A DNA stretch of 64,000 nucleotides from contig JAQGDQ010000039.1 of assembly GCA_030141605.1 (NCBI GenBank), positions 248,001 to 312,000 on the forward strand, read 5' to 3'. This stretch comes from Tubiluchus corallicola. Taxonomy: Eukaryota > Animalia > Priapulida. The stretch's first letter is position 1; each line of letters begins with the position of its first letter. This document shows positions 551 to 58,584 of this stretch, in pieces. The notes beneath the pieces are model-generated. The model did not search any database and was not told where the DNA came from. It was given only the letters and a program-made list of their open reading frames with translations. The translations under genes were made by a program, and so were the position numbers.

Positions 551-676
551 GGCAGAGAGCAGGTGGTCCAGGAGCTTCATCTGATCCATCAAGGCAGTCA
601 TTCGTCATATCACAGACACCAGTACGAGGGATGCAAGCAGAGTAATCCTCACATAAAAAGTTGTCACCTGTACAAC
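551..676 (-). CDS. Gene A exon 9, LDLa
   Basis: [41 protein letters not shown]; DxSDE motif; phase 1-1, 126 nt. Confidence 0.9.
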
Positions 677-1959
677 CTATTTAAACACTTCATATGAAAT
701 TTCTGGCATAGGTCATATTTGTAGTCGTATTTAAAACCTGCTGGGTACTTTTTATACACCGTTTTAAACTGTATATACTTACTAAATTTACTCATGGAAT
801 AACACAGCCCTTGTATTATTCCACGAGTAATTAGAAGGAGAAGGAATGCAAGCAAAATAATCCTCGCATAAGAAGTTGTCACCTGTACAGCCTATTAAAA
901 CACTTAAGTAATCTTACCATAAATTTTTTTGGTTGAACATCAATGAAATTGAATAAAATACAGACATAGCCGTAATACTGAAATACATATGATAAGGGAG
1001 AATGTTGATGTATTCAGAATAAGCCATCAGAGGCAGGTATCTCACAGATAAGTTCATCAAAGCAACCAGTTTTTTTTCTGTTGCAGTTACATCAACATCC
1101 TTGTTGTGCATTGTTTCCTTCGTATGTATTTTTCCTTGCCTACGTAAAAAAGCTGTATTTAGTTTCAGAAATAAACTGTTTTTGAGTCAGAATACTGTTA
1201 CTAATAACTTGCTACAATACTGATACAATTTTTAGATCGAACATTTTAAGTCGTGCCAAAGAATTTTATATACCCGTTGTAACTAACACTTTCTTTTATA
1301 TAAGCGTATTATGTTTCTATAAACTAAGACTGTGCGTTTTTTACTTGTGCCTTATTTTTGTTCTTGTTTTATGGACTTTAAATGTCTGAAATAAAATAAA
1401 CAATAAAAAATAATAGTATGGCAAAAACTACGCGGTAAATACAGTAGCAACAAGTGAGAATCCAAAGAAAATAAAATTGATGGAACTGAATTATTTCTCA
1501 ATTCTGCTTAACTCATTTAATTATTTATTATGAGATTATTGTAGTAAGCATTATAAAATAATCAATATAAAAGTCACAAAAGACCAAATTAATGACATAA
1601 AAGCATATTTGTAAAGCTAGATTAGAGTTAAACAAATAAAATATTTTCTACTGCAGTTTTGTAGACACACCATTCGTCTAGGTACATACATTGTTATTAA
1701 TGTGTATGCATACAATCCATTCAAAGATATTTACTTAAATTCATAAAACATTTACACATGGCAGGAAACAATGATTTATAATAGATTTCCAGTTCATATA
1801 GCTTGATTGAGCCAGATACTTTCTGTTGACAATGGTAAACGATTGTGCACGTTTTACGACTGTTTGGTGGAAATTTTGGCGAATATTTAGCGACTGTTGG
1901 ACCATTAAGTTCTTCTAGGTTTTGAAACTGGCTGCAGATTGTAAGTACACACATGTATA

Positions 1960-1990
<31 letters not shown>

Positions 1991-4900
1991 TATGTGTTAA
2001 AAATACGTAACGGTAGTAAGCTAGTAGTTTAAACTTAAAAATATAAATGTGACCTCACGGCCGGCTTCCCTCTACTTAAACATATTAGCGAGTTAGTTCC
2101 GTTTTTGCTACGAAGAAGTACTAACTTGTTGCTCTTATGCTTTTTTATTCCGTCACGATACTACCCCGAATTTAAATTAAGTGTAAAAATAAGTTGCGAG
2201 CGACATCAAACCGTTAGTCAAGAACATTATGCGTATGTGACGTAATTATAATTCTGAAACCTTTATTTGTTAAATGTTTAGCTATATTTGCTTGCTCCAC
2301 AAAATATTAGTCAATAAACGACCAATTTACATCTATAATAAGCTAAATTTCAATTGTAACATGATCTCTAGACAGTAAAATTTACTTTTTATTTCTGTTG
2401 CAAAATCTAATTCTGGTACAAGACGGTTTATAGCCAGGGCAAGCAGGCAATTAGTATGCAATCAAAACTGAATTCAATAAAATCACAAAAATTGAAACTT
2501 TTAAAAATGAATTCAGTGAACTACTATAATTAATCATTAGCTACAATATATTTTATGTTATTTTTAACTCTAATCTAGCTTTTATGACGTTAATTAGGAT
2601 TTTTTTAATTTTTATATTGATTATTTATACTGTTTACTTCTATACAGTACACCATTGTAAACTGTGCAAAGAAAAATATAAAATGGGGACTGTATATGGA
2701 CTGTAAACATAAGTAGAATAAATATATGAAAACATTACAAAGCTTTCAACGAGGTCCGCTAACTGGGCACCTCAGTCCTTACAAGCACATGTAACGAAGA
2801 ATAACCAACAAAGAAAAAGAAGAAAGCTATCTTTTTAAAACTTACAGCAGTCAAGTGTACGGGTACCATCGCAGACTTCAGCAGTTGCACAGGATCCGTC
2901 ACCACAGTCAACTTTACCAATCTCCTCACAAGCTGTATAATAAAAACGCCAAGTTATTGTGGTATAAACCAATAATATACTAGATTGTGATTTATTTGTT
3001 GCGCAAAACAGAAAGCTTTTTAGGAAACTAGGCTTTTGTGTCTCACTACCCCTAAAATTATTTTCCTCGCAAATTATGGATGGTCAAAACACATCTATTC
3101 TAACATTTAAATCAGTGGTGTATTATTATTGCAATTAATTTTACTACTGATCATAATTATGTTTTAATTCATTGTGAAACTTGCAACAATAAGTGGAAAA
3201 CGTGAAGCAATCAGTCTATATTTTTCGTACAAGAACAATCTGTACCAGATACCAGTACCAGATATAGCGCAGCTAAAATTACTGACTGATGAAGAACTAT
3301 TCTAAAGAGATATACATTGCAGCAGCAAATCTGCTTAAATCATTTATAACATAAAAATTGCTTATCATAATTAGGTAAAGGTGTAACGGATCGTAAAGAA
3401 GAAAAGGGATCGTACGTAATTCCGTCTCGCAGGTAAAACCTGTGTAACGTTCTCCACAGATGCATCTAAACAAACGTCCATAGTCGTAGTCGTACACGCA
3501 AGTGCCATGATTCTCACACGGGTTGCTCTCACAATAATCTAAATTTAAAAAAAAACAGCAAAGTTCAATTTTCCACGTACTAGCAAAAAATTGAGCTAAC
3601 ATGCCAAAAATAAACACATTTTAATAATAATAATTGTTAATTAGTACTAAAAATTGCTTTATAAACAGTAGCAGGCAGACTTTCAGGCTAAGGCGCACAT
3701 CAAAGACATAGTTCAAATCAAATATACTGTTACGAGTAACACCACAGCGCCTGTTTCCTAAGAGTAGCGTGAGGCACACTGAATTCTGGCGTGTTCATTG
3801 TATACAAATCGTCTGATCATCATCACCACCAACATTACAATATTCTTCTGAATTGCTAAGGCAGTATTAGCAAAAATACTACGTACGAGGACGACATCCA
3901 CCATACCCATCTTCTGCGTAGCCTGGAGCACAACGACAGAATCCCATTTCCAGGGACTTCGTAATATCTTTCTTACGACAATCAGCATTATCGTCTTTAC
4001 ATTGCTCCTTGGTAAGGCATGGCTCCCCCACATCGGCAGCTAATATGTAAAAATATTTATGATGGCGTATCGTACTTATGAAGCTTAAAATGATTTAAAA
4101 AAATCTCTAACACTAACCAGTAATCAAAACAATGTCGTGCTGATGGGTCTGCTCAGAAACGTCAATAGGCCAATAGATGGAAGAACTATTGGACTATTTG
4201 GGTAAATGACCGATTATGATAGCAACCGTGTTTTTCATATCGAGTATATTTGTCAACGAAGAATAAACTAATTAGATGTCAACTAGCACTAACAGACTGA
4301 GAAAATCTAATTGGTCTAATAATTACAAACTAGGTAACATAGGTCAATAAAATACCGATTACTTCATTACAAGCCTAGAAGCTTTTCAGGAAAAAGTCCT
4401 AGAGTGTCAATATGGATGCAAAACCGAAAAATAATATTTTGTTGTCAAGCAGAAAATAAAAATAAAGTAGGTATCTTGCATCTAAGATCTCCTAGGGTGC
4501 AACCAGTGCACTCCAGCAACAAAAAAGCAAATCACCTACGAGGAGCAAAAAACTAGTGCACACGCCAAATGGGACTCGACTAGGTTGACAACAGAAATTT
4601 GCAGATATGCAGAAGTTGAGCACCCGTGTTTGTTTCTATATGTTCTTAGTTACTTCTGTTACACTCATTAATCCATTAACCCTCTAGTCCTCTATAAATG
4701 TACGTCTGAATATCATTTTTACAAAACAAACTTAACTCTACCCTGATCCTCATTGAGCATCATCACAAAATCATCAATAGCGCATGTTTTGAAATTTGAC
4801 ATCAGAAAGATTCACAAAAATGATGGTAACTACTGACTTCAGCCACTTACCAAGTTACTTACCAAAGTTAAAATTCGCTGCTTCGTATCTGCGAATCCGT

Positions 4901-7900
4901 TCTTTACATTCGAGGCTGCCCCTATATATTTTTTGCAATAAAAGATATCATTAGATAAAAGCACACTACTGGTTATTTTTGGCGTTACTCCGAAAATGTG
5001 AATATTATACTAATTCACCTTTATTCGTCTTCAACAATTTGCAGGCCTTCACTTGCATGGCTTCAGTTCACATTTGATGTACTTGCGAATATAGCACATT
5101 ATAGTACACGTACGTATAACATGGCTGAGGCACCTATGCCGATTCAGTGGCTCACCTTAGAAAGATATCCTTGAGCATATGAGAGATTCTAGTCACAGTG
5201 AAGTATAAAAAATTGTAGCGTAAGAAAACTGTATTTCGTGACCGAGACTCCAACTAAGTAGTAGTCAATTATATATATATAATTGCAGTTATTTCTGGAC
5301 GTTACGTAATCAAGATGTTTTAACAAATACACATTTTACAATTAGCAAGCTTTCAGAAATATATAAAGAAGCAAACTTAACTTTCACAGAAATTAGCACA
5401 AAAGCAGTAAAACTGGGATTATAAGTCACATTTAGCAACGCTTGGCAATTCAGTGCACTACATTTTATCACCAATGGACAACAAATAATTTCTTGTGAAA
5501 TTATGAATAGCCTCAAGTTTATTTGTTTCAATACTTACATGAACTTTCCAATTTTGTTATCACATCCTAATGCAAGCGTTTCTGAGTACCAGGGCTGCTT
5601 ACTTGGTCCATTCCAAGGATAACTGATGGTTATTGAACTCTACAGACATGAAATTTTGTAAAAAAAACTCTATTGAAGATAGGTATAGTTATCTTTAAAG
5701 TGTCTCGGACAAAAGAATATAAATGTTCTAATAACATCTAATAACGCAAATTTAAATCTTAATACCAAGAATAGACACTCCACAATTAACAAAAAGCGTT
5801 AACTCTGCCAGTTGAAACAATCTGTTAACTTACTGCAATGAAGACTCTGCTTGAAGGGCCAGTAATCCCACTTTGCTAGAATGGCTTTTATGGTCTAATA
5901 AATGGATCTCTATACTACAGTATGATCTACAGTCAGCTGCTTGGAATGTGTTCATGTCTTCAGTTTCTAAGAACTTAGCATACAGTTTTACTTTTTCATA
6001 TGATCAAAACAGTCTGAGATCAAAATTGTGTAATTTATGACACTGGATTTTAAATTTCATTTTACTGTGTTTTCCTGCTCACTTTATTTGTTTCGTTTTA
6101 TGGATAATAAGGAGTATCATAGACAAGTGTTTTTTCTTGATATTCCGTCTACAAATAGGCTACTATTTACTTAGTTTTATGAATTTTTTGTATATTTTAA
6201 CAATACGGAAAAGCACAAAGAAGTATATGATTTTTTTCTCATAAACCTTAGCTGTAGTTCGAGCTGTTTTTAACCGTGACGTTTTTCTTTAATTATGAAC
6301 GCAAATTATAATATAATTAATTACAATGCAAATTAAATATTGCAAGGAGTATCGTTACGAGAGTAATATCAATAACCAGGCGTGTTAACAAATAGGCTAA
6401 CTAGTCTGTAGTCCAGGGCGCCAAGTTTTCAGGGACGCCAGAATATGCGCCCAGTGTTAAAAAAATCTTATTCTCTTCGGAAAATGTGTGTCCTTTTATA
6501 TTCATAAAAGCGCGTATTATAACACACCAAAAGCAGTTATTGGGTTCACTGCTTATATAAGTGCTACGTAACAAACAAGTACAACAGGGTACTGCACCAC
6601 AAGTAGTTTCGCATCCTGCTTAGACAGACCTATGAACACTAAGCAAATATAACAAGTATGTTATATGCGCTTGATATATATAAGCAATCATAACTCCATA
6701 ATAAAGATGGTTGTGAAAGAACTATCAACCTAGGATGTCCCTATTAACTTAAAATACCTGCCAACAACCGGCTAAAGCTATTAATACAGGTAAATGGGTG
6801 AGAGAGAAAGCTAAAATCATGGGACAGCAGCATGTTGATAATGTAAAAGAAAGCAGAGGAACAAGTCAAGCAGGCAACGTGATCTCTTAGTTATTAGCGC
6901 ACTTGAGTGAAATTTAATAATAATTGTCTATACTGTTAGGCCACTATAATTTCTCACCTTAAAAGCATAATACGATGAACCACACCCAACGTCATTAAAA
7001 TTGATTACGTAGTAGAAAAATTTTCTGCCAAGGCCATTAGCAAGACAGCGTTTATTATTCCTATGACCTGACCCTCGTTGGTCATTGTAATCTGGCTTTT
7101 GCTGATCATAGTAACCTGGTATTTGTTGATCATGGTAACCTGGTCTTCGTTGATCATAGTAACGTGGTCTTCGTTGATCATAGTAACGTGGTCTTCGTTG
7201 ATCATGGTAATCTGGTCTTCGTTGATCATGGTAATCTGGTCTTCGTTGATCATAGTAACGTGGTCTTCGTTGATCATAGTAATCTGGTTTTTGTTGGTAT
7301 TCTTTATAATTGGTAATTCTTCCTGGGCCGAAGTTATCTGCTAATTTCACTGTTCCATGAAATTCGTAAGCGAACTTCAACCCGACAACCATGTAACCAC
7401 ATTCCTCGTCACAATACGTTTCTACGTCTAAAATAAAATTGCGAATTAAACTCATCATCAAACGAAATGTAGGACTATTATAAACTGTAGGACTTAAAAT
7501 AGGAGAGCTCTCCTAAGACTTGTCATATTTAGCATGAATAAAACGTTGAGTGGCCTTTATAGTATAAAAATAAATTATTTCTTTCTTTCATGAGCTCTTG
7601 CCCTACCCACGCTTAGGTTGATGAGGTCCATTAGAGCGAAAACTCCTAAAAGAAAGAAAAAAATTTTTCTATTAAGAGATTATAAAGGGCATCCAACCTT
7701 TTATTAACGTTAAATGTTAGCTGTCTTTTACTAAATAATTGTTCAGTGCTACACCAAATTAGGGACAGATACTTTCGAATGTTGAGTCTTGTTGGTAATC
7801 AACATTTTTAAATGCTATTTTTACACATTTTCAAATACCCTGTCTAAACCGATGATAGTGACAAACATTTTTTTTAATTCTGCGGCTGAGTAATATGCAA

Positions 7901-9429
7901 TTGAAACTTACATCTGACTGGTAAAAAAGCGTTCTTAAATGCTATTCCTTATTGTTGACAACATTTTAAATAAATACTATACTTAGATGGTAGCGTAACA
8001 CATTTCTACCTGCAATACTTACCTAGAAAACGAATGTCTTCATACATCTGCACAATTTCAAAAGTGCATATAGATTAATTAGTAAGGTATTTTCAAGAGT
8101 TACTGCTAACTGCAGTGAGGCAATATTTTCAAATACTGCGCCAGTTGATCAAGGAGTGCCAGTGCTAGGAGGAACAACTGAAAGTTTCAGTCAGTGTTTG
8201 GCAATGCAAGTTAAACAACACTATGCCTGTATGTTTAATAAATGGGCGGGCAGCAGTCACATTCTACTATAGTACTTCTAGCTGTTACCCTTTAGAGAGG
8301 ATGTAAACATTGTACACACATTTGTACATGGTAAAAAATCTTGTTGGTTCAGTACCTCACAGAGGATTATCTTTTCAGCATTATTTACAATGCCTTGAAG
8401 AAATCATTGAAGTGTCCTTATGGAAGATTCAAGAAAATCAGTTGGTTATCACCAAGTCCAAAGATTTATGACAGTTGGTGAGACAAGTTAAAGATACTCA
8501 TGATTAAATAAAGAAAGACAAGATAAGAGAAAGAAAGACACGACAAGATAAAGAAAGACAAGATAAGATAAGAAAGACAAGATAAAGATAAAGATGACAG
8601 ATACTGTTACGCGCATCTTCATGTCAATGAATATTTATTGTATGATATGATATAAATTAAATATATGATTAAAACGATGTCATATTTTGATCACCAGCTC
8701 GTTTTCATACATTAATGATAAAATAAAGTGTCACCATCACGAGTCTGCTTTGGTAAACCTCTAGCCACAAGCAGAATTTAAAAACGCCTTGTAACTAATG
8801 TTGTTTGCGAGAGGTGTTGTATAATAGTGATAGTGTTTCTCCAAGTCTGGTGCTATTTTGCGCATATATCTAGTAGATTCTAAATACTTTGGTGTGGATC
8901 ATTACTTACTTCTAATCAACTTTCGATGACGCCGATTTCGGTATGAACCATACTGTTGACATTCGACCGACAACCTAAAAATAAACAATGGAGTTTAAAA
9001 CCTTCAACGTCATCAGGAGAAAACCTGTTATCATTGTTGTCCAGCTATAACAGATGTGATTGTCTCTCTTCTTGTCATAACGCTGTGGCCACGTATTGTC
9101 AATGTTGTTACTGTTGTTGTTGTTAGTGGTGAGGTGGTAGTGGTGGTGGTGGTGGTGGTGGTGTTGGCGTTGGTAGTGGTGGTGCTTTGCTTTCGTTGGT
9201 GTTGTTGTTATTGTTGTTGTCGTTGCTGCTGTTGATACTGTCAATATTAATAGCGTCATAATAAATTATCTACATTACAGATCCGTATATCAATACTTTT
9301 TACTTTCTCAGTTGAGTATCAGTAATCTGATACGTTTACAACAAACTTTAACCTGATTAAAGTAATGATTTAATTTTCTACTTACAATAAGATGGACAAT
9401 ATGATCTGCAATGTGAACATAACGTCCAT
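551..9429 (-). CDS. Gene A (3'-partial): secreted ZP-N-like/Tyr-rich repeat/EB/EGF/LDLa protein
   Basis: Nine phase-compatible GT-AG exons: 9386-9429, 8910-8974, 6958-7427, 5539-5639, 4863-4921, 3887-4039, 3416-3538, 2846-2932, 551-676. N-terminus MDVMFTLQIILSILLLSVEC|QQYGSYRNRRHRKLIRNVETYC. Colinear with genes B and C; continues past position 1. Confidence 0.85.
845..889 (-). pseudogene. Partial duplicate of the 5' part of LDLa exon 9
   Basis: ag-GC TGT ACA GGT GAC AAC TTC TTA TGC GAG GAT TAT TTT GCT TGC ATT CCT ([16 protein letters not shown]), then unrelated sequence and a stop. Confidence 0.75.
2846..2932 (-). CDS. Gene A exon 8, truncated LDLa-like
   Basis: CEEIGKVDCGDGSCATAEVCDGTRTLDC; ag/gtaagt; 87 nt, phase 1-1. 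Confidence 0.85.
3416..3538 (-). CDS. Gene A exon 7, EGF
   Basis: [40 protein letters not shown]; 123 nt, phase 1-1. Confidence 0.9.
3887..4039 (-). CDS. Gene A exon 6, EB/EGF-like 6-Cys module
   Basis: [49 protein letters not shown]; 153 nt. Confidence 0.85.
4863..4921 (-). CDS. Gene A exon 5, linker with RIRR
   Basis: [19 protein letters not shown]; 59 nt, phase 2-1; homologous exons at 20259 and 53665. Confidence 0.85.
5539..5639 (-). CDS. Gene A exon 4, C-terminal part of ZP-N-like domain
   Basis: SSITISYPWNGPSKQPWYSETLALGCDNKIGKF; 101 nt, phase 0-2. Confidence 0.85.
6958..7427 (-). CDS. Gene A exon 3, ZP-N-like domain with 24-bp (YYDQRRPx) repeat insert
   Basis: [30 protein letters not shown]...[about 10 octapeptides]...[31 protein letters not shown]; ag/gtgaga. 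Confidence 0.88.
8910..8974 (-). CDS. Gene A exon 2, end of signal peptide
   Basis: LSVECQQYGSYRNRRHRKLIR; phase 2-1; tttag/gtaagt. Confidence 0.8.
9386..9429 (-). CDS. Gene A exon 1, signal peptide
   Basis: ATG GAC GTT ATG TTC...= MDVMFTLQIILSIL + gtaagtag; 44 nt, as in B and C. Confidence 0.8.
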
Positions 9430-11831: not shown

Positions 11832-11845
11832 TCATTCACACTCTT
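11832..11845 (-). CDS. Gene B terminal exon (KECE*)
   Basis: ttgacag|AA GAG TGT GAA TGA; homologous to gene D terminal exon KECRF*. Confidence 0.75.
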
Positions 11846-14800
11846 CTGTCAAATAAAATTAAAATAAATAATTACACTATAATGATGTAAATTGACGAAT
11901 TAATAAAAATGGCATTTGTGATAGATCGAGAAAAAATGTCACATTTGATGGGCTGCGTTAATGAGTTAAGTGACAATCTGACATGGCCGCACGATGTCGC
12001 AGCTGGTGACAAATAGTGGTTTCTGAAATCTGCCTATATAGTAGTGACGCACTAAATTCATACAATTACAAATGATTAATTAATAAAATAACAAGGAAAA
12101 CATATTTTTATCTTAATTCGCATCACAACGGCTACTAAAATCTATGATTACCTTTGACTATTCCTTACCACAAATGAAGGAAGTTTGTAACGAAATTAGT
12201 AGCACATTTTAAAAGCAAGTGAATTGTTTTGATCCTACTTACTTCCATCACAGCTGTCATCACTGCCGCATATAACGTCTCCAGTATCACAAGTGCATGT
12301 AAACGATTGCCCGATAGATACACAAGTAGCAGGACCTGATCCACCAGTTGGACAGGGCGAGCTTTCACAAGGATCAGCTAAAAACAGAAGCAATGTGTGT
12401 GTAATAACAGTGTGTAACACTTTTGGTGGCAGGGAAAGTGGCTGCTGTTTTGACTTCTGCTACCCCTTCAGCAAGTCTGTAGGGATGTTGTAGGACTATT
12501 AAGTCGAATAGTAAATGGCCTCAAAATTTGACGAGTGGTGCTGCGTATCTTTAATAAAAATAAAGAGGTGGCTAACCATAACAAGGTTTATTAGTATAAA
12601 CGATATTTCGGAAAAATCAATGCTCCCTTCATCAAGTTACATAAAATTAATCACATATAGTTCCACGATGTTATTAAAACACAGTAAGGCAAAATAAACC
12701 CCGTTACATCTCGCATTGTGCACTTTGTTGTGCGATGTAATGTGGTTATTTTGCTTACACTGTGTTTAAATGTCATCTGGAATTCTGTGTGATCAATTTT
12801 GTATAACTTGATGAATTGAGTGGTTTTCCGAAATATCGTTAATACTAGTAAACCTTGTTATCAATAACCACCTCTTTATTTTATTAAATCGCTTCTTTGC
12901 CTTTTAGGCTCGCAACACATTAGCATCTACGCATTCCATTCTTTGTTACCTATTAAATAGTGATAGGCAATAGTCAAACTGTCATAGTAATAAGCATTTC
13001 ACAGTTTAGTTGCGCGCACGCGCAATTGCTGTAGGCAAAGGTTAAGTGTATCATAGCAACGCGTCTTAACTATACCCGTCACGTGATATGTGGGTAAAGC
13101 AAAGCCGTCTGCCGCGCCAGTTTAGTAACTTCAGTTATTTTACATGGACTTTACATAATTATGCATTAGTCTGTGCGTAGAGTGATTTACTAGCAGGCTC
13201 TTGCCTGGGAACAAGAAAAAATGAACTAGGTAAGATTTTAGCTAGCTGTTGAAATTGTTACGATTACAATAACATCGGCTGCGAGGCATTGTCAAATGTA
13301 GACAAATGCGTTGTCTGGCACACTTAACCTTTCACGATCATTATCAATCACTGGAACTGCGAAAAGACTTATTGATCTATCAAGCAGGAATCGCAGTCTT
13401 AGAAAGAAAACTCGAAACGAGAGTAGAAGCAATGAAGAACGTGCAAAACATTCATGGCATTTCGGCTTGATGATGACTTATAATTGAGATACTGAACTAT
13501 GAACTACGAAATTTGTTTCATATATAGCAAAATATAAACACATTTGAAAGAATAAAAAATTTTGTAGTTCGCATGAATGAGCATTTGCACACTCCCTTTA
13601 AGTAATAGAAATTATGTATCTTGTATGTACGACTAATGCTGTAAATAATGTCCTAAATAAAATGTCGTCATATCTTCTAAGTATCTCCAAATAAAATTAG
13701 TGTCTATCGTTACTTCTAATCGTGGTTAGATTTATATTCTAAAAATAACTACGATTCATGCGTAAGTTCGTCAAGTTTACAAGACTTGGCATTGTTCAGG
13801 GCTTCTAACAGATGACATGACATTTTTTAAAATAAGAGTAGTCAATTACAACAGACAAGGAGAGTGCTGCTTACTCGGCATGTCACACGTTTCGCCTTCG
13901 CAGCCTCCAGCACACATGCACATAAATTCACCAGGACCGGCAGCTACACAGTTGCCCCCATTTTCACACGGATTTGGTCTACAAGGATTGCTTGCAGCTA
14001 TATAACAAAAACAGAAATATTCATTATAGTTTCCCGGTTTCATGTAATTAGAAAAATATACCACTTCTTTGGCAGACAAATATCAAGTCTCAACAAATGA
14101 AGACCAATTATTAGACCTGATAAATCGCTAGTAAAAAACGTCAACCGTTTGATTTTTGCGCAGCCCATTTAATGAAGAGATTGTAAATTCAGAGTTTAAA
14201 TCTGCTTCCAAAAATTATGTAAGACTATTTTAAACATTTCAATAGCTCTACCTGCATTGTTAATTGCCAAAGCATACCGAAGTATTTTGATTGATGTAAA
14301 TTTAATATAACAGTAACAAGATCACCATTTCAAATACTGACAGATTGGAAGTATAAAGTATGGAATGGATGTGTTTGACTCATGTAGAGACATAATGTTT
14401 TTGAGTTACTTATAATCAAATAAAAGCCCAAGCGTTATGACTGTGGTACATGAATTTATACAAAAAGGAAACTTACAACATTCAGCCTTATCCTCATCCG
14501 AACGATCGTCACAGTCATCAGTTTCATCGCAGACGGAAGCCATCGGAATGCATCTGGAAAGGTCATCACAAACAAACTGGCCGCGCGGACAGCGAACTAC
14601 GTAAAAACAATTTAGGTTCATTATAGAAGTAGCATCAGCTTATAGTTATACTGTAATTATAGTTAAATCTAATTATAATTTACATTTATTACCGGCGTAT
14701 GTGCACGCATGGGTCATAGTGCAATCGCCAAAAGCATATTTGGACTGGGTAGTAACTGTGCCACCTAAATTGTATTGAATTTGTGTCGATAACACTAATG

Positions 14801-16380: not shown

Positions 16381-16452
<72 letters not shown>

Positions 16453-16535
16453 GCCGCCGCCGCCGCCGCCGCCGCCACCACCACCACCACCACCACCACC
16501 ACCACCACCACCACCACCACCACCACTACCACCAC

Positions 16536-16628
<93 letters not shown>

Positions 16629-42426: not shown

Positions 42427-42569
42427 TTAATTAATAATTAATTGACAAGGAGAACATTGCGTAGCCCCGGAACCTTTGCCACAGCTGCACACGAATTTAC
42501 CGAAATCATCAACTGCACAAGTGCCCCCATTCTCACAAAGATTGTCAATACAAGGATACTGAACTATAA
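42427..42569 (-). pseudogene. Decayed EGF exon formerly of gene C (donor deleted)
   Basis: [33 protein letters not shown]; relative to 13875-13997 the CDMP|gtaag end is deleted and the frame runs to TAA. Confidence 0.65.
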
Positions 42570-44110: not shown

Positions 44111-44206
44111 ACTATAAATTATTCATTGCGTGTTGGCTTATCCATTTTTTTTCTATATAGTATGATAGTTTACTGATTTCTCTGTGTTGCTCTTCTGCTC
44201 CAATTA

Positions 44207-44229
44207 TTAAGGCGGACCCGGTGCAGGAC
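44207..44229 (-). CDS. Gene C novel terminal exon (CPAPGPP*)
   Basis: ttattgtttctgcag|GT CCT GCA CCG GGT CCG CCT TAA; T|GT supplies the missing 6th LDLa Cys. Confidence 0.65.
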
Positions 44230-47200: not shown

Positions 47201-50200
47201 GGCCCCTAGTCTGGTAGTGTGGACATGTATTACTTCAAGGATAACAGCATCGAATGGACTACTTGCTCTTTCGATTACAGCTAATATGCTTCAAAGGAAT
47301 TACTATCCATTTTACATCGCATGTTGTGATGCTACTCGTTTTCCTTAATACGGGAAAACAAACACCTCCTTGTCTGACACATATAGTTAGCCTCACAGCT
47401 AGGGCAAATATTTTTACATTATATAAAAAAGACATACGTTATCACGTATTTTAGGAACCGAGACAGCCAGCCGTGATTTGTACGTTGCGTTAACAGCAAA
47501 ATAAACCCAATATGCTAAGACCCAACGTCAAACATGGCAACATTCTTCCAACAATTTCGTGAAGTTTTTCGGATGGTGCCGACGATTCTGCAGTGCTGTT
47601 CAGTTACAGATAACTATAGTTTGTGCGCGCAATGCGGCTTAAACTATGCCTTATAGTTGCATAGGCGCACAGTTAGCCTATGAACTATTACACGTTTAAT
47701 TACCAAAGAGGCTTGTTCTTTCCTTTAAAACAGGCATTCGTAGGCGACTCTATCTGTAGCAAAAGCGTCATTTGCAAAATAGTCGGTTGCATTCGTTTTA
47801 GTAATTTTAGTTAGCGTAAACTATTAGTTTACTCAAATAAAAATCGAGTTTGTTATTTGTCAACGAAAAACTAGAAAGCCATATGTCCGCCAGTTCAGAA
47901 AAATATTATAAAAATTCCCCTAGCTATTATAACACAGCAAAGTGTATTATACGAGAAGGAAACTTACATTTTGTCTCGTCCGAATGATCGTCACAGTGAC
48001 TGATTCCATCACAAACATCACCTGGGAGGACGCATCCAGAAAGATCGTCACAAACAAATTGACGGGCTGGACACTTCACTATGTAAAAAATAGGTTCATT
48101 ATAGCTTTTGTAATTACCGACATAAACGTAGATTTGGTCAAATGCGTAATGCCACAGTTAGGATAACATTCCGCCAATAATTCCGGAAAGTTTGTAGAGG
48201 CGGTGCTGATGATTCTATAGTGCTAAATTCAGTTACAAATACCTACAGTTTGTGTATCGCAATATGCGCCAGTACATAAACTATATCTTGTAGGTGTTGA
48301 ATTTGCCTATAAATTTTGATAACTTTAATTAACAAAGTGCTGACAAATTATTATTTATCAATTTATATCGCCTATATGATATAAACCCATTATAACTCTG
48401 CAAGTCTGGTACATAAAAGGCAACCCTAGTGAATCGTTTTCAATACACTTGGTTCGTATTTATCGAAGCTGAAACCCCAGCACACGTAAAATTTAGAAAT
48501 TTATTTCAAGTCACGTAATCTGTCTGCTTCGACGTTTATGTAATAAGTTCTTTACTAAAGGTCTGGTAACCGAAAAAAGAAATAAAGGAAGACTGGAATA
48601 GAAGGACATAGAAAGAGAGAGAAATTGAAAAAAGGAAATGACGAAAGAAAGAAAGCAGCCAACCAAGAAAAAAGCAAACAGAATGGCAAAAGAGAGAAAG
48701 AACGAAAAGTAAAAGAAAAAGAAAGAAGAAGAAAAAGAGGAAGGGAAGGAGAAAACTAAAAATGAGCTTACAGCAGAGAGCAGGTAGTCCGGGAGCTTCA
48801 TCTGATCCATCAGGACAGTCATTCGTCATATCACAGACATCAGTACGAGGGATGCAAGCAGAATAATCCTCACATAAAAAGTTGTCGCCTGTACAGCCTA
48901 TTTAAGCATAAATAACCGTATCATGTAATTTTCACAGACTGACTCAGCAACTCTGAAAAAGCCTAAATATTGCAGTAAATGGTTAGCAAGATGCTGGTGC
49001 ATTTCAGATGACCAGAAATGATATGAGATGAACCAAACAGTTTTTATATAAAATCTGCAGAAACAAGCCTTGCCAGTGTAGCAGAAAATTGCTAGAGGAA
49101 TATCAAACAAGTTAAAGTGAATGGACTTGCACCATATTGTCAGCATAAAAATTGCTTAACTTAGCTAGCATATTACGTTTACATTTAGTGCAAGCTCTTT
49201 TGTTTGGTTGTTTATTATTTTATGTGTTCTCATTTCTGACTTTGTGATTGCAATGGAGTGTCTAGTCGCCAGTGCGACTTACGGTGTACAGATTTCAATG
49301 TACAACAGAGAGTGGAGAACCACAAAATGTCAATTATTTGTCTCAAAACTAAAAGCTCAAGCAACAAGAGAATGATTAATAAACTAAGAGGCGAAAACTT
49401 ACAACAGTCGGCTGTACCGTCACAGGTTTCAACACTTGCACAGGATCCGTCACTGCACTCAATCTTTCCAATCTCCTCACAAGCTGTATAACAACAAGAT
49501 TGAATGTTTACAACTGACTATACCTGGTCGAGTGTGGTTAACTCATGTCAGTACTTGTAGATTACTATGTTCAAGTGTGACTAACCAGTATACACGGTGC
49601 TCTTGACTAATTATCACTTGACTATGCCTGTGCCCAAACCGGTTTACTCATGTGTGATAGAGAGTTTGCCCTAATTCTCACATTTCGACTCCTATCTCGG
49701 TTGACTTGGAAGTTTCGTGACTCTTGTTGCTATAGTTTCAGCGTTATTTAAGGTATGCATTTTGGCTTTATCTCGGCCTAAAAATCCTATACAAGCTCCT
49801 GAAAACCCCAGGTGCACATCTACCCTGCAATACCTAAATATATTGTCTATTGTCTATACTGAAAGTTTGAAATATCGCGACTCCGCGTACATGAACTGCA
49901 GCTTTTGCAGTTATTTGATGTTCGGATTTGAGGGACAAAGCCATTTGCTCTACTTTTCGTATTTTGACTCCGGTCAAGGACATCTAAACAAACATAGGTT
50001 TTTTATCTACACGATTGTCCCTACTCAAGGTGTCTACCCTTCAAGTTCGCGACTCTAGCTACTGTAGTTTAAGAGTTATTCAGTGTTGTGCATTTTGGCT
50101 CCTATTTCGGTGCCTTAAAGAATACCTGTTTTTCAAACGCCCAGAAGCACGCCTACCCCACATTATCTAAATAATTGTGAAAAAATTGAATTTAGCTCCA

Positions 50201-53200
50201 CTCCCTAGGAGGAATTTAATGGTAATCAAAAAAATTACCACAGTTTTCTAGTATCCTTAACCGTTTGACCAGTGTAAACATCTCTTGCACAATTTTTAAG
50301 GTTCCCATCCCGGTCAAGTATCTACCCCGTAGGTTTCTGACTCTAGCCCTCTGCATTTCCAACTTAAATTTAAAAAGTCGAAAACTGGATATAATTACCC
50401 AGAATAACGAAAAAAATCAGCATATTGGTTCTTTTCGATCCATCACACAAGCGCACAAGGATAAAAAGATCTCAATATGAAAACATGCTAAATTAGTGTT
50501 TAGTTGCTGTTATAAAAGTTGAACAGAATATAAGTCACGGGGATAATGTCTAGTAATGTTTTAAGTAAATGTACATTGCAGAACTGATCATAATGCAGCT
50601 ACTGAAAAGCATAATAAGAGAAAGGATCGTACGTAGTTCCGTCTCGCAAGTAAAACCTGTGTAACGTTCTCCACAGATGCATCTAAACAAACGTCCATAG
50701 TTGTAGTCGTACACGCAAGTGCCATGATTCTCACATGGGTTGCTCTCACAATCCTCTAAATTTAAAAAAACAGCAAAGTTCAATTTCCCACATACTGGCA
50801 AAAAATTGAGCTAACATGCCAAAAACAAAACAAATACATTTTAATAATAATAATAATAATTGTTAATTAGTACTAAAAATTGCTTTGTAAACAGTAGCAG
50901 GCAAACTTCCAGGCTAAGAACGTACGTCAAAGACATAGTTCAAATCAAATATACTGTTACGAGTAACACCACAGCGCCTGTTTCCTAAGAGTAGCGTGAG
51001 GCACACTGAATTCTGGCGTGTTCATTGTATAAAAATCGTCTGATCATCATCACCGCCAACATTACAATATTCTTCTGAATTGCTAAGACAGTATTAGCAA
51101 AAAATGTACGTACGAGGACGACATCCACCATACCCATCTTCTGCGTAGCCTGGAGCACAACGACAGAATCCCATTTCTAGGGACTTCGTAATATCTTTCT
51201 TACGACAATCAGCATTATCGTCTTTACACTGTGCCTTGGTAAGGCATGGCTCCCCCACTTTGACAGCTAATATAAAATAAATGTTAATCATAATAACAAA
51301 TTATATCTATATAGGTTTAAATAGCAAACATCTGTAGAAAACACTATCCAACGATGGAACAATAGGCTGAGGGACCTAGGAACTAACTGGTTAACGGGCT
51401 AACTAAATTTGCCCAACCTGTTTCTACACAGCATGTTTGTCCATTAAGAATAAACTAATTTGATGTGAACTGATATTACGCTACAACCACACTGAGATAT
51501 CTAATTCGTTCCGTGGTAATAAACAGACTAATGCTGAAGACTCCGCCGGGCAAAATAACCGAAAATGGGATAAATTTAAGCAACGACCAAGTGATGGAAT
51601 TAGGCAACGGTATAACATCGCAAGAAATGAATATAGTAAAGCATGCTCGAACATTAAACAAAAACATTACAATGAAGTGTGAAAAGACTTGCTTTATATC
51701 AAACACCTCAAATAAAACATGGTGGAAAATATCGAAATCAGTTTATAAGGGGAATTCTGTCCAAGGTGCGCCTGCATTACTAGAAGGTAATAACATGATT
51801 ACAATGGATGTCGGCAAAGTCAACATACTAAACAACTACTACCCAAGCTAGCTTGTCAAGCATTTAAAGTATTTCTGACAAAATTGCCAACATCCAAAAA
51901 AGCTTAGAAATTAGCAAAGCAATAGAGCCTGAACGGTATTAGCAGCTTTTGAAAAATATAGCTAATGGAATTTCAGTCTCACTTAGCAAAATCTCTAATA
52001 AGTCACTGAAAAGTGGATCCTTTCTTAAATGTTGGGAAAAAGCCAACTTCAGCCCTATCTTCAAAAAGCACAATGGACAAGAAAAATTTAATTACAGACT
52101 GATTAAAAACTCTGGATTCAAATCAAATGATGGCACAGTCTATCAACTTTTATCAATCGATCATCAATTATATCAAGCCATGGATAATGAATTTGATGTA
52201 GTCATTTTGGAAATATCGAAAGCCTTTGATAAAGTATAGCACCCTGGATTTTTATTTAAACCTGAACAAAATGGCATTAAGGGCTACTAAAATGGCTTGA
52301 ATCCTGCACATCGTCAAAGAGTGGTAATTAATCGCAAATTCTCTGACTGAAAAGGTACAAATGCAGGAGTATTGCAGAGATCAATATTAGGCCTAAGAAT
52401 GTTGGCGATTTAATTGGTGTCTTTATTAACGTATTAGTCTTTACTTTTAATACGAAAAATCAACTGTGAATTCGAGGCTTTTTGCCGACGACCGTCACTA
52501 ATTGAAGTTATAGATGATCCAAACACTAACGCAACACCAATCAACCCCTATTTGCAGAAAATACAGCAGTGGCTGGGCTCACCAATGGTATGTAGACTTT
52601 AATCCTAGGAAAACTGAAGTAACTAGTATTCAGCTGTAATTAAACTCAAAAGACATTAACACCACACACAAATAACGAAAAGAGACAAACAACTGCAAAT
52701 CATACAGTCTACAACAGCACACATACAAAATTACCATGAAAAGAAAAAAATCATCAGGTGAAGCACCGGGAAACATTCAGATTTCGGTGCCTACTCACTA
52801 TCTTCAAACTCTCTGGGTGGGGACCCAGTCACAACGACTACCCAATCTTAGTTTTTAAAGTGATAACTACAGACATGACACATAATACAAAGCACAGCCA
52901 GAACATCAACGTAAACCAACTGCAACAATGACAAAAAAAGGAAAGAGACAAAAGGTTAGACAAGTTTTTCACCCCCAAAATCACATCAAGGCAAGAGCCA
53001 CTTGCTTAACTGAATACCAACCAAACTTAAATAACAGAAAACGGCGACTTTTAAAAACATTTTCACAAGATTGAGGAAGGCTCGTCGTAGAGCAACTCCT
53101 TGTTCGCATAATTATATACAACCTAGCTGCCCTAACCAAAAACCCCTCCTTACTTGAACAGAACCTGGCATTTTTCTCAGTAACTGACCAGAAAACACAT

Positions 53201-56200
53201 ACATTATTATCTATTTTAAGTAGAATATTACTAGAAGGAAAATTGTACATAACGACAGGAAAGGAGAAATCATCAACTTTATGAAAAATATCATAAAATC
53301 ATAAAAAAACTGTGAACACACAATTACCAGTGGGCCCCACAATTTCATTAGCCCAGGGGCCCCAACAGGTCATAATCCGGCTCTGCCTGTTAGCCCTTTG
53401 GTAAACCACTAAATGTAAGCCTACAAATCATTCAAGTGCAAAATTAATCAAATTTCAAATCTAGTACAATTCTTAGCCTTTAAAACACATAATTAATCTA
53501 AAACATCTCTAAACAAAATGATTTCAAAGTACAAACGTCTCCCAAAACATCGGTATACAAGGTTAAGTTTTGCCATAAAAGCCACTTTGCCGCAAGTTTT
53601 AAAATTCAGTACATCACCAAAATTCCCTAAAAATAGCAGCATTACTCAACCTTATGTTACTTACCATAGAGAAAATTGGATGATTCAAATCTGCGAATTC
53701 GCTCATCGCATTCGACACTGTCCCTATACGTTTTTACAATAAAGATATCATTAGATGAAAGCTGACATGCTGGTTATTTTTTGCATTATTACGAATTTCG
53801 AGAGAACCAAATTTAAGCAAAGTGAATTAACCATCATTTCCACCAATCTTTGGGATTTGGCTTGCATCTCAGTATTCACAATTTTCACAAAGTCATTTTC
53901 AGCATTTTAGCTAAGATATTTTTGCGTGATCCAACCTTTGGCGAGTAAGTATGCATTACCTGTATTGGGGCTTGAAAGACTTGAACACAGTTACCCTCCC
54001 CCCATGCAGCACGACAAAATTTTCACACTATTGTGATATATTTTTTGTAAATATTTTGAAAATATGGAAATGTGGACTTGCCACAACATTGTACCAATAT
54101 GGAAAATTGTCAAAAAATATTGGTACAATGTTATGGCCAGTCCACATTTCTATATTGTCCCAATATTCCAATATTTGCAAAAATATTGCCAGAACATTGT
54201 GACAATTTTGTCGTGCTGCATGGGGATAGGGTAATTGTGTTCAAGTCTTTGAAGCCCCAATACAGGTAATACATACTCGCAAAAGGTTTGATCACACAAA
54301 AATGTCGTGCTACAATATTTTTCGTGCTGCCAGGATCATTGGAAATAAGAAAATACATGCTACTAAGTTACACACTACTGTTTATCAGCAAAATGAACAG
54401 CTTTACCACTTACAATTTTCATGCAAGTTTGTGTGATAACAGCCCCGAAATGGCAAACTCGCAGAAATGTAACTGCACATTCAAGGAATTACAGGAAAAT
54501 GTTAGAAAAGGTTGTAAATTACAAAAGCCACCGAATTAAATTTTTGCGAAGTATGCAGCAATACTCTCACTACGTGATTCAGCCAAAGACAAATTACAGG
54601 AATCTCCCATTTATAATACTTTTAGCGCCAACCGCTGACTTTAGACATTTTTGGTATACAATTTGCCTACTTTTGGCACTTTCTTGATGTGCTTGGAAAA
54701 ACAGCATTAGGCATAAAAGCTATATTTTGGCTATCCCACCTGGTTCATGGTGCATGGTTCATGGTTCATGGTGCAGACTTTTAGCAGGCAACAATTTCCA
54801 TGATCTCATAATATTGTGTGGGGCTTCAAATTAAACTGTAACACTTACCCTAGGTATTCAATTTTGTTGTCACATCCTAGTGTAAGCGTTTCTGAATACT
54901 TGGGTTTCACACCGTGTCCATTCCAGGGATAATTGACGGTTATTGAACTCTATGAACACATAATTATCAAAGTATAACAGTTGTATTAACGATAACTTTT
55001 TGTTATAAACATTGCTGTTCTGCATAAGTGGACGATTATTCAGTTACAGAAAAAATTATTAAAACAAGTTACAGATAAGTAATATTTTCGCAGTTATTTA
55101 AATGACTGCTCTGAGTAATACAGTGAGTGAGGCCTATATGTCCCCAACAGACATTGAAGTTTTTTAACACGCTACATGATTGCAAGAAGAATTCATAGTT
55201 ATTGTTAAACAAAAGAAACTTATAAATTAAATAACGTACCATTTTCTGGAGAATTTCGAGTGTATTGCTATAAAGTACGCCATGTTCCGCTTTTTTGGCT
55301 TGAGTGAACGAGTTGAACATAAACAAATTATTTGAACGTATTGAACACAACAGCATGCACAGAAGATAGTGTACTGAACACCCCTTTCACGCAAAATGTA
55401 AGTTTCTGTTGAAGCCAAGTTATGCATCTGGCGGGTATAAAAGCGGCCGTCTCTGTTCTTATACTGGTCCAGTTAGATTAATCCACCCTGGTGAAAATTC
55501 TATTTCTCATTATATTTGGAGATACTTCATGTAATTTGCCAGTTAAGGTATCGTTTTTCTCGCACATCATTCTGTTTCGTTGATGGATGTCAGAATAGTC
55601 ATAGTCTGCTTGGCCTCCGCATCTGCTGGTACCGAACAACCTGGGTAGTTTTACCACATGTCGACGAGGTACCGCCGGCAGGTCAATATAAACATAAACA
55701 AACAGAACAGAGCAAGACAAAGAATTACAGAATAGATACGCATAAGAAAATGGTACACTTAAGAATCGTAAAATCGGAACGGAGAGACTAGATCTGAAAT
55801 CACTGACGTTATGTGATCTTTCGTCTTATGTGTGAACTTGCAAAGAATTTAGCGATGAGCGTTTATACTATTAGGCCATCATAATTTCTCACCTTAAAAT
55901 CATAAGATGGTGATCCGCACACGGGGTCTTTAAAATTAATTACGTAGTAAAGGAAACTTCTGCCAAGCCCATTGACTAGGCAACGTTTATTGTTTCTGTG
56001 TCCTGATACTCGTTCACCATTGTAGCCTCTATAATTGCCAGATTTTCGCTGATTATTGTATCTTCGCCGGTCATAGTACACTGGTCTTCGTCCATCATAG
56101 TTTCTACCATTGTACCCGGGCCTTCGTTGATTATAATATCTATCATTATACAATGGGCTGCGTTGATTATGGTACCTATCACTGTACCCTTGTCTTCGCT

Positions 56201-58584
56201 CATCATAGTATCTATCATTGTAGCCTGGTCTTCGTTCATCATAGTATCCATCATTGTACCCTGGTCTTTGTTCATCATAGTATCTATCACTATAGCCACG
56301 TCTTCGTTGATCATAGTAATCATCATTGTATCCAGGTCTTTGCTGATACTCATTATAATACGTTTCTCTTTCTGGGCTAGTATAGCCGTCTGCCACAGTT
56401 ACTGTTCCATGAAATTCAAAAATGAATTTCAACCCAACAGCCATGTAACCGCATTTCTCATCACAATATGTTTCCACATCTAAAAACAAAGTTATGAGAT
56501 TAAACTCATCATTAACTAAAATGTTAGCTGTCCTTGTAGTGAGAGTCGTTATCAAATTGTGGTGGCAAGCATTTTAAATTCTGTTGTTGAATAGCATACT
56601 TGTTGCAGAACGTCCACTAAAATACCAATATTAGAAGCCTATCGAGATTACAAAACACTGATATTTCTTTATAAATATATCAATAAACTGAGCATTCCAT
56701 TTATAAACATTCCCTTAGCATTCGTTCCTGATACCACTTTAAACACTAGAACACACAATTTAAAGCAAATTACAGCAAACAATTACAGTTGACTGGTAGA
56801 AAGCTGTACAGCAAAATCAGAATTTTCTTTTTTATTGTCAGCCAAATCAAAATCTCTTTTGTATTACCACTGTTTCTCGCCCCCGGCCCCTACATGAAAT
56901 GAACAATCGATGCGATGTAACGAGAGCGCGACGCTATTGGCTCTTAAGACTGAGTTTGATACCATAAAACTTTGTTTGTCAAACAAAAAGTTTGTCTAAG
57001 TGGCTCTTAAAGTTAGCGAAAACAACTGAAGTTTCTGAACTGATGCGGCAGACGGTTTTGCTTTACACACATGTCACGTTACTCCTTGTACTTAAGAGGC
57101 TTGCTGTGGTACACTTAACGTAGACTTAACCTTGACGTAGAGTAACTGCGCGTGTGCACAACGAAACTGTGAAAAGGGTTATTGCACATCAAGCTTTAAA
57201 GATTCCAAACACATTGATAACTGCTAGCAAAATAACTCTCTACTTACTTTTAATGAGCTTTTGAGGTGATGCAGTTTTACTGTCTTGTTGCTGGTGTGAC
57301 CCATACAGCTGACATTCAGCAGAAAACCTAAAATTGTGTGGAAACGTTGCAGTTCTTCTATAGCTCTAAGTTCCGCTTTTTGTCATTACCGTTTTGGTAC
57401 AGTTGCCACCATCACCAGCTTTCTGCTGTGTCTGGTGGCCAGGTAATGAAACTGTTAGTACTATTGTCGTTGCTGTTGCTGTTGCTGATGTTGTTGTTGT
57501 CGCTGTTGTTGTTATTGTTGTTGTTGCTACACTTGCTGTTCCTCCAATTGTTGCTATTGGTGTTGTGGATGTTGTTGGTGCTGCTGCTGCTGCTGCTGCT
57601 GTCATTGTCATTGTTGTTGCTGTTGTTGTTTTGCTGTTACCGTAGCAACAATCATCAGGAACAACAACAGCAACGACTTGCAATTTCATTTAAACAACGA
57701 CAAAAATTATTAAAAATAATATATCAAGTCAATTTTTTATGACAAGCACTAAAAACCTTTATGGTTAAAGATAACACAACTTTATTAAAACTTTTGCATT
57801 AAAAAGTTAAAATCATGCCAAACGTTTCGGCAGGCTGCTGCTGTCATCATTAGTGGTAAATTTACAAACATGCAACCAGTTTATAGAGGCAGCGTCTATT
57901 AGGCGCTAATTAAGTAGTTAACAGAAACCAAATAGGTAATGAATAATAAGCAGACCAATAAAGAAATTGATACAATAACTTAAGGATGCTATGCACTACT
58001 TAAATAGTGCATAATGCGTAATAGGCTCTGCCTATATAAGCTGGTTCTATGTTTGTAAATTTACCACTGATGATAACAGCAGCAGCCTGTCGGAACGTTT
58101 GGCATGATTTTAAATTTTTAATGTAAACGTTTTAATAAGATTGTGTTGTATTTAATAATAATATATCAATTGTAACGTATAGTTCTTAGCATTATCATAG
58201 GTTTGTCCAATATGCATTACATATCCACATTAACAAAACGTTTAACTCTGTCGGTTTAGCAAACTAATCACTAAAACGATAAAAATATGTAAATACGTAA
58301 GGTAACTTGCTAGACGATTATGTAGGAATTTAGTCCGCTGCAAGACGGGTTGGTGAAAACAACCGGAAATAAAAAGTTTACAAATAAACACCAGCTTCTA
58401 ACAATTTTACAAAAATTTATATTCAGAATTAGTTAGAACTGAATTATAACGAACAAATTGGCTATCATAAAGAATATTAAAAAACAAACTTCATGACGAA
58501 CACAAAACCGACTAAAATAATGATTTAATTTTCTACTTACAGAAAGAACGACAAAACGGTTACTACTCTCAATGTAACGACCAT
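44207..58584 (-). CDS. Gene C: secreted ZP-N-like/Tyr-repeat/EB/EGF/LDLa x3 protein, about 495 aa
   Basis: 11 exons: 58541-58584, 57248-57327, 55893-56479, 54849-54949, 53665-53723, 51114-51266, 50633-50755, 49403-49483, 48772-48897, 47968-48078, 44207-44229 (1488 nt). MVVTLRVVTVLSFFLFSAEC|QLYG...SDETKCPAPGPP*. Confidence 0.82.
44590..46815. mobile_element. Foldback/MITE-like element with nested inverted repeats
   Basis: Tandem about 18-bp ctatcttttcgccagt array (44600-44740) is mirrored at 46580-46815; inner inverted repeat about 44805-44920 versus 46340-46450; no credible ORF. Confidence 0.7.
47968..48078 (-). CDS. Gene C exon 10, LDLa
   Basis: [36 protein letters not shown]; 111 nt. Confidence 0.88.
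48772..48897 (-). CDS. Gene C exon 9, LDLa
   Basis: [41 protein letters not shown]. Confidence 0.9.
49403..49483 (-). CDS. Gene C exon 8, truncated LDLa-like
   Basis: [26 protein letters not shown]. Confidence 0.85.
50633..50755 (-). CDS. Gene C exon 7, EGF
   Basis: [40 protein letters not shown]. Confidence 0.9.
51114..51266 (-). CDS. Gene C exon 6, EB/EGF-like module
   Basis: [50 protein letters not shown]. Confidence 0.85.
51510..52650 (+). mobile_element. Degraded CR1/L2-type LINE RT fragment
   Basis: KTWWKISK, CWEKANFSPIFKK, ILEISKAFDKV, QRSILG, FADD; disrupted. Confidence 0.8.
53665..53723 (-). CDS. Gene C exon 5, linker with RIRR
   Basis: DSVECDERIRRFESSNFLY. Confidence 0.85.
53925..54296. 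mobile_element. Hairpin MITE (about 370 bp palindrome)
   Basis: ttacctgtattggggctt.aaagacttgaacaca...atgcagcacgacaaaatt is mirrored by aattttgtcgtgctgcat...tgtgttcaagtcttt.aagccccaatacaggtaa. Confidence 0.75.
54849..54949 (-). CDS. Gene C exon 4, ZP-N-like C-terminal part
   Basis: SSITVNYPWNGHGVKPKYSETLTLGCDNKIEYL. Confidence 0.85.
55893..56479 (-). CDS. Gene C exon 3, ZP-N-like domain with 36-bp (YYDERRPGYNDR) repeat insert
   Basis: [24 protein letters not shown]...RCLVNGLGRSFLYYVINFKDPVCGSPSYDFK; 587 nt. Confidence 0.88.
57248..57327 (-). CDS. Gene C exon 2
   Basis: FSAECQLYGSHQQQDSKTASPQKLIK; phase 2-1. Confidence 0.8.
57760..58160. mobile_element. Penelope-like inverted terminal-repeat remnant (family 1), both hammerhead cores mutated
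   Basis: Palindrome homologous to 37230-37560; cores read CTAATGA (minus strand) and GGAAC (plus strand). Confidence 0.65.
58541..58584 (-). CDS. Gene C exon 1, signal peptide
   Basis: MVVTLRVVTVLSFF + CT|gtaagtag. Confidence 0.8.

Follow-up and report, generated by a model that had tools for sequence, protein, structure and literature searches.

Tandem genes for predicted secreted EB/EGF/LDLa proteins with a putative ZP-N-like domain and a Tyr/Arg/Asp-rich insert in Tubiluchus corallicola

What kind of extracellular protein is encoded by three tandem genes on contig JAQGDQ010000039.1 (positions 248,001 to 312,000) of Tubiluchus corallicola, and could such a protein build a matrix with a ZP-N domain and no ZP-C? 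The stretch analyzed, called the window here, is 64 kb of animal genomic DNA with 35% GC, in which introns, microsatellites and transposon remnants are present, and all coordinates given below are those of the window. An earlier note, made from the letters of this DNA, had described three colinear minus-strand genes, each with a signal peptide, a lone ZP-N domain and a series of EB/EGF and LDLa modules. The analyses showed that the trio, designated A, B and C, is a real, selected tandem family, and by analogy with known systems its products would most likely work like cleavage-activated matrix proteins.

Self-comparison of the window revealed three homologous blocks on the minus strand, in which exon boundaries were set at AG/GT sites common to the copies, the junctions coming from sequence and paralogue comparison. 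Gene A (42428..58584, minus strand) was modelled with 11 exons (58584-58541, 57327-57248, 56479-55893, 54949-54849, 53723-53665, 51266-51114, 50755-50633, 49483-49403, 48897-48772, 48078-47968 and 42563-42428, the 3' end being uncertain). Gene B (11832..38031, minus strand) was modelled with 13 exons (38031-37988, an inferred assignment, 22854-22766, 22046-21514, 20814-20705, 20317-20259, 19968-19816, 19612-19490, 18343-18263, 16083-15958, 14596-14477, 13997-13875, 12377-12243 and 11845-11832, which carries the stop). In gene C (551..9429, minus strand), which runs past the start of the window, nine exons were seen (9429-9386, 8974-8910, 7427-6958, 5639-5539, 4921-4863, 4039-3887, 3538-3416, 2932-2846 and 676-551). 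The claim of three colinear genes with fitting phases was borne out: no internal stop was present, the junctions were AG/GT throughout, the intron phases 2, 1, 0, 2, 1, 1, 1 and 1 were common to A, B and C, and exons 1-9 were homologous one to one. Exon lengths differed in 10 of 27 pairwise comparisons, all ten differences being multiples of 3, which follows partly from the choice of equal phases. B was the sole complete model, with 569 residues and an AATAAA 130 nt beyond the stop. A hydrophobic N-terminus was found in all three models (KD19 1.79-2.27, with exon 1 of B inferred), and the signal peptides described earlier stand as predictions judged from hydrophobicity only.

A splice-site scan for Cys-rich phase-1 exons gave 22 minus-strand rows, of which 17 were modelled exons, four were alternative boundaries of those and one was something else, and none on the plus strand; because the models had served to train the splice matrices, the plus-strand zero alone counts as a control, and exon 2 of a fourth, shorter gene, D, was missed by the scan. 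Sequencing reads, whose RNA nature is a guess, gave 29 short pieces at 3300-23000, mostly on repeats, with no splice joint. Another read set covered exons and introns alike, including the candidate exon 1 of B and the first two exons of D at about 99% identity, bridged nothing, may come from the source sample and is not counted as support. Micro-exons of 17 nt and 21 nt near 56.6, 22.2 and 9.0 kb were considered and dropped, since a longer homologous exon 2 of 65-89 nt fits all three genes. Intron 1 of A, B and C carries a trinucleotide-rich microsatellite at an equivalent place (57370-57690, 23230-23450 and 9100-9260), which would read as long Thr or Cys runs and lies outside the modelled exons.

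Selection on these genes was evident from comparison of the paralogues. The dN/dS of the N-terminal domain without its insert (Nei-Gojobori, 116 codons) was 0.35 for A-B, 0.26 for A-C and 0.35 for B-C, and the first 30 codons of the domain were 80-87% identical at a dS of 0.38-1.07; the domain is under purifying selection. In the EGF, EB and LDLa exons, dN was lower than dS in every pair. The gene models, the Pfam results given below and these ratios together upheld the view of a tandem family whose modular products are predicted to be secreted. The closest pair varied by exon (B-C in exon 1, 0.84; A-C in exon 6, 0.95; A-B in exon 8, 0.98; B-C in exon 9, 0.97), and a mostly intronic block of 1.7 kb shared by B and A (18006-19677 and 49150-50823) was 95.6% identical. 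This exon-to-exon change of closest pair and the near-identical intron block suggest gene conversion or unequal crossing-over in the 3' modules. Another paralogue pair of mostly intronic segments (3396-4063 and 50613-51291) was 92.2% identical.

The identity of the N-terminal domain is central to the question. It is encoded by exons 3-5 on the minus strand (A, 53665..56479; B, 20259..22046; C, 4863..7427), contains six cysteines in each of the three genes and is interrupted by an insert of 131, 113 and 92 residues, respectively. The cysteine motif quoted in the earlier note was found in all three genes, and the residue pattern presumably resembles that of arthropod and nematode ZP-N. With the insert removed, four ZP-N-type cysteines showed a spacing of 30, 21 and 34-37, and blocks of strand propensity were located past Cys1, in the Cys2-Cys3 interval and past Cys3. 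Comparisons with published systems, here and below, draw on parts of each cited source: the trimmed alignment of nematode ZP-N has cysteines at 1, 29, 48 and 80 (spacing 28, 19, 32), with Cys2 in the CD loop (PMC7456536), and mouse ZP3 has them at 46, 78, 98 and 139 (spacing 32, 20, 41; PMC1479692). The spacing and the strand pattern make the earlier identification plausible, and we consider that the N-terminal domain is probably ZP-N. There is no room for ZP-C in any model, and in the complete B all residues past the domain belong to exon 5 or to exons of EB/EGF/LDLa type. As modelled, the proteins are not full ZP-module proteins and are probably of the ZP-N-only type.

The region downstream of this domain was analyzed with Pfam, run per exon on 23 single-exon pieces. 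Both exon-6 pieces tested scored above the Pfam cut-off for EB, as did exon 7 of A, exon 11 of B and exon 2 of D for EGF, and exons 9 and 10 of A and exon 10 of B for LDLa. Exon 8 encodes a truncated LDLa-like unit that lacks the acidic motif at its end (E 0.076 in A, no match in C). Exons 6-10 of A (47968..51266, minus strand) encode, in order, EB, EGF, truncated LDLa-like, LDLa and LDLa units by Pfam. In B, exons 6-13 (11832..19968, minus strand) encode the same five followed by an EGF, an atypical EGF-like unit and the stop, with Pfam run on exons 6, 10, 11 and 12 and exons 7-9 assigned through 93-100% identity to A. B exon 11 (13875-13997, minus strand) has seven cysteines, so the C-terminal half of B holds an odd count of 45, which would leave a possible free thiol for intermolecular bonds. 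A partial duplicate of the first half of LDLa exon 9 of C was observed at 791-913 (minus strand), just upstream of that exon.

The insert lies before the third of the six cysteines, is itself cysteine-free and is composed of 17-25% Tyr, 15-21% Arg and 10-14% Asp. It consists of repeats of 24-nt and 36-nt units, all on the minus strand: 7.5 copies of the 36-nt unit in A (56071..56340), 3.9 copies of the 36-nt and 2.4 of the 24-nt unit in B (21721..21885), and 9.2 copies of the 24-nt unit in C (7075..7296). It is the most length-variable part of the proteins and has the highest dN/dS, about 0.5. A repeat of this kind might be the precursor of short bioactive peptides cut at dibasic sites, or a scaffold for tyrosine iodination in the manner of the ascidian thyroglobulin-like precursor, given that Arg-Arg separates the repeat units and that 22/28, 24/28 and 16/16 tyrosines have an Asp or Glu no more than two residues away. 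Convertases, however, seldom cut before Pro, and Pro follows Arg-Arg at six of six sites in C, the figures for dibasic positions being 3/9 in A and 1/3 in B; the repeat also sits within a cysteine-bounded conserved domain. The ascidian precursor is made of Tg1 domains (PMC12992692), and no Tg1 family was matched on the 23 Pfam pieces, so that a peptide or iodination role is highly improbable.

A predicted furin-type site, R-I-R-R, was found on the minus strand in exon 5 of all three genes (A, 53690..53701, counted from the exon start; B, 20284..20295; C, 4888..4899), after the sixth cysteine and 16 residues past the fourth ZP-N-type cysteine. It is invariant in an exon in which 10 of 19 positions are invariant overall, and no other such site is present in A and B. 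The residue that follows is Tyr or Phe, which furin tolerates after the cut position in some substrates. R-I-R-R fits the R-X-K/R-R consensus that comes after the ZP module in ZP proteins (PMC11673550). The predicted cut would divide each protein into an N-terminal half of 26-31 kDa with six cysteines (pI 9.0, 8.1 and 9.5) and an acidic, Cys-rich C-terminal half (pI 4.1-4.2).

A tentative account, possible rather than likely, is that the trio consists of secreted, furin-cut paralogues whose basic, Tyr-rich half self-associates and is cross-linked through tyrosine into an extracellular coat. The pieces flanking the insert would together form a single ZP-N beta-sandwich, with disulfides 1-4 and 2-3 and one extra pair, the insert being placed in the loop just before Cys2, a step that we consider probable. 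LDLa modules bind basic residues, and the acidic, calcium-binding LDLa/EGF half might shield the Arg-rich insert and keep the precursor soluble, standing in for the brake provided by ZP-C or a propeptide. Cleavage would release the basic half, tethered by no disulfide, ZP-N edges and Tyr-Arg contacts would condense it, and a peroxidase or oxidase would fix it; the product could be part of an egg coat, cuticle, tunic, tube or glue. Arg-Tyr contacts drive condensation in silk (PMC12772222), and ovoperoxidase cross-links the fertilization envelope of the sea urchin (PMC2114886). A more far-reaching version, which we regard as doubtful, is a self-contained, cleavage-activated matrix system replacing ZP-C, in which an acidic LDLa/EGF prodomain would mask an Arg/Tyr-rich loop set into a lone ZP-N, furin would remove the prodomain, cores would align, loops would phase-separate, and dityrosine or DOPA cross-links would produce a coat or glue. 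If true, ZP-type assembly and Tyr-Arg condensation would be united in one small domain, which would offer a direct route to the function of ZP-N-only proteins.

Several known systems share part of this architecture. ZP-N-only proteins include PLAC1, Oosp1-3, Drosophila Papillote, CG16798 and CG10005, and C. elegans F55A4.10 (PMC1479692; PMC4883753), and resemble the present proteins in having a signal peptide, a single ZP-N-type cysteine pattern and no ZP-C; CG10005 has been linked to epicuticle deposition through expression timing (PMC4883753). They differ in having four cysteines in a match of 88-102 residues (PMC1479692, Table 1), with no EB, EGF or LDLa modules named in the figure legend, whereas the present proteins combine six cysteines and a 92-131-residue insert in the domain with an adjoining furin-type site and EB/EGF/LDLa modules. 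Full ZP-module proteins with LDLa or EGF (amphioxus BbZP2-5, nemertean NeZPL, ascidian HrVC70 and uromodulin) are likewise secreted and have a furin consensus right after the ZP part. Amphioxus BbZP carries LDLa and a ZP module at the C-terminus (PMC3543715), NeZPL has EGF and a membrane segment, ZP proteins with EGF in nemerteans and ascidians carry ZP-C (PMC11673550), and in uromodulin the EGFs come before the ZP module (PMC7737619). All of these have ZP-C, whereas here ZP-C is lacking and small modules stand past the cut site. In the Oikopleura house, ZP and LDLa occur in separate proteins in the passages covered (PMC3390340).

Sea-urchin SFE1, SFE9 and proteoliaisin are similar by description, being secreted LDLa-repeat structural proteins of an envelope (10.1101/369504) hardened by peroxidase cross-links, and offer a model of how the present proteins may function; ZP-N is not reported for them in the passages covered. 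The free ZP-N repeats of ZP1, ZP2, ZP4, ZPAX and abalone VERL resemble the present domain as ZP-N without its own ZP-C, with roles in binding or cross-linking, but they stand in the same protein as a full ZP module, and no long low-complexity insert is described for them in the parts of the sources covered.

A number of points count against a ZP-N-based, cleavage-activated matrix protein. The domain has six cysteines, compared with four in every ZP-N-only protein listed in Table 1 of PMC1479692. About 2% of random six-cysteine placements satisfy the ZP-N spacing windows, which, like the insert boundaries, were chosen after the data had been seen. The ZP family was not found by Pfam, which matched no family on 10 exon-3 and exon-4 pieces (31-195 residues, split), and no sequence relative was present in PDB at a meaningful E-value (best E 0.3, nothing relevant, on short split pieces); both blanks are a weak test, because the pieces were unspliced, short or diluted by the repeat. 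The AlphaFold2 model of exon 3 alone (3 sequences; pLDDT 34.7) was unusable, and profile, structure and homologue tests could not reach ZP-N, because introns and the insert of 92-131 residues split the domain. The missing profile and PDB matches, the six cysteines and the post hoc spacing test would fit a domain other than ZP-N, namely an unrelated cysteine-containing beta domain in a lineage-specific mosaic that the Tyr/Arg repeat could still make structural or adhesive. This alternative is unlikely in our view, since the three spacings and the strand pattern agree jointly with ZP-N and, as in ZP proteins, a furin consensus comes after the domain.

Regarding assembly by the putative ZP-N, its description as the polymerisation half was overstated, since the uromodulin filament needs both ZP-N and ZP-C (PMC7737619), and vertebrate free ZP-Ns appear not to dimerise via the usual edge (PMC9154058); isolated ZP-N stacks into filaments in vitro (PMC7737619). 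Masking, release, and assembly with cross-linking are argued from analogy. C carries a second furin-type site at residue 27, and the three R-I-R-R sites are not independent, owing to their common ancestry, and amount to one observation kept under selection. The first exon of B and the last exon of A are also uncertain in the models.

The main rival, which we judge rather unlikely, is a free ZP-N that forms no polymer of its own and either caps or decorates full ZP filaments or binds a partner such as a sperm protein, a microbe or a receptor, with the insert and the LDLa/EGF part setting specificity. Filament capping has been proposed for ZP-N-only proteins, and filaments have been shown to require ZP-C (PMC7737619), free ZP-Ns diversify towards binding roles (PMC9154058), and the variable length and elevated dN/dS of the insert would fit such a role. 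The domain core, in contrast, is under purifying selection, the rapid change typical of recognition proteins was not seen, a long Tyr-rich repeat and a cleavage site would be unneeded for capping, and the window showed no full ZP gene.

For a cleavage-activated, secreted matrix protein, the ends of the genes also matter. B continues past its first full LDLa by four exons (14596-11832: LDLa, EGF, atypical EGF-like and a short stop exon). Past the signal peptide its model showed no hydrophobic segment (KD19 at most 1.07, and -0.83 for the last 19 residues), and neither a membrane segment nor a GPI signal was found in the models of A and B. The end of C lies outside the window: a GTAAGC donor follows its exon 9 at 550, and the exon after that is out of sight, since the corresponding distance is 694 nt in A and 1362 nt in B and only 550 nt of window are left. 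The statement that B and C end without a membrane or GPI anchor held for B, which proved to be four exons longer, and does not extend to C. The position of C's end and the hydrophobic stretches given by read-through of intron 9 (A and C) and intron 8 (A) would allow one or more members to be receptors or adhesion proteins tethered to the membrane, whether by a retained intron or by an exon further downstream that was not seen. An anchor encoded by read-through of intron 9 was rejected: the frame is not conserved as coding, because none of the seven indels between A and C has a length divisible by 3, and in B a stop comes after 8 codons. With a polar tail followed by polyadenylation signals in the complete B model, membrane anchoring is very improbable.

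The 3' end of A is uncertain in the model, and may be exon 11 or an exon-10 read-through. Exon 11 is without a donor, and all three frames of the exon-12 copy near 41.5 kb are interrupted by stops. With exon 11 spliced on, the second LDLa is left without its sixth cysteine; reading on from exon 10 as far as a stop near 47930 would supply it. The segment 41370-42563 (minus strand) appears as a degenerate tail of A, made of the donor-less EGF exon and a broken copy of B exon 12.

The only good signal exon for B lies 15,133 nt upstream and is 84% identical to that of C; one weak alternative phase-2 signal exon between 22.9 and 37.9 kb lies inside a palindromic repeat and was rejected. Between the candidate exon 1 and exon 2 of B, on the same strand, lies gene D (26255..30811, minus strand), with a signal-peptide exon (30811-30766), an EGF exon (28496-28374), an EGF-like exon (27124-26999) and a last exon (26271-26255); its model has 103 residues and is homologous to B exons 11-13. 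As modelled, either D is nested in the first intron of B, or D is a fourth unit without its middle and B is without its own first exon. Absent from the earlier note were D, the site of furin type with the charge split around it, the exons that extend B and the truncation of C by the window edge.

Mobile-element remnants were observed elsewhere in the window. A broken non-LTR retrotransposon remnant lies at 32381-34286 (minus strand), with Pfam RVT_1 on two of four pieces (best E 3e-8), and a second candidate remnant lies near 51474-52236 (plus strand), where no RVT match was found by Pfam. Long imperfect palindromes, some of them interrelated, at 12550-12888, 37233-37522, 43882-44106, 53904-54316 and 57759-58161 look like non-autonomous hairpin transposons.

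Homologue searches returned little. Word-index searches confirmed none of 828 candidates for C exon 3 against longer proteins, none of 3377 for the exon-3 alignment at near lengths and none of 572 for the EB alignment against longer proteins. HMMER against 1.84 billion representatives gave 11 matches, all centred on the repeat, which were rejected as low-complexity because the profile of the insert-free domain reached at best 1.2 bits and the ZP family occurred in none of the 11. In a metagenome scan, none of 80 stretches was confirmed for exon 3, and 2 of 130 were confirmed for EB, both 18-residue matches that were set aside, unread, as chance. These blanks are weak evidence because the collections are mostly microbial and thin in animals, and the ESM Atlas, where there was no usable match, says nothing on absence or novelty. 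In the literature, covered mostly as titles and abstract starts, with few subscription journals and no supplements, a ZP-N that contains a Tyr-rich repeat and is accompanied by a furin site and EB/EGF/LDLa modules was not found; such an architecture is also absent from the passages covered of a 2026 review (PMC13361971), and the scallop byssus secretome names Tyr-rich and EGF proteins (PMC9168380). The full combination was thus not found in the databases or literature searched, while a lone ZP-N, described earlier as unfamiliar in this setting, is not new, because ZP-N-only proteins occur in worm, fly and mammals (PMC1479692, Table 1).

What role ZP-N-only proteins play has been posed as an open question (PMC7737619), and CG10005 has been suggested as a model for it (PMC4883753). 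If the domain of the present proteins is not ZP-N, the family would be one more lineage-specific EGF/LDLa mosaic, ordinary for invertebrate secretomes; if it is ZP-N, this fold tolerates an insert as long as itself. The family would then add a case with a built-in switch, in which the 26-31 kDa half is separable from the insert and from the acidic half, and for which polymer, cap and condensate models give different predictions for the N-terminal half with or without the insert and the acidic half.

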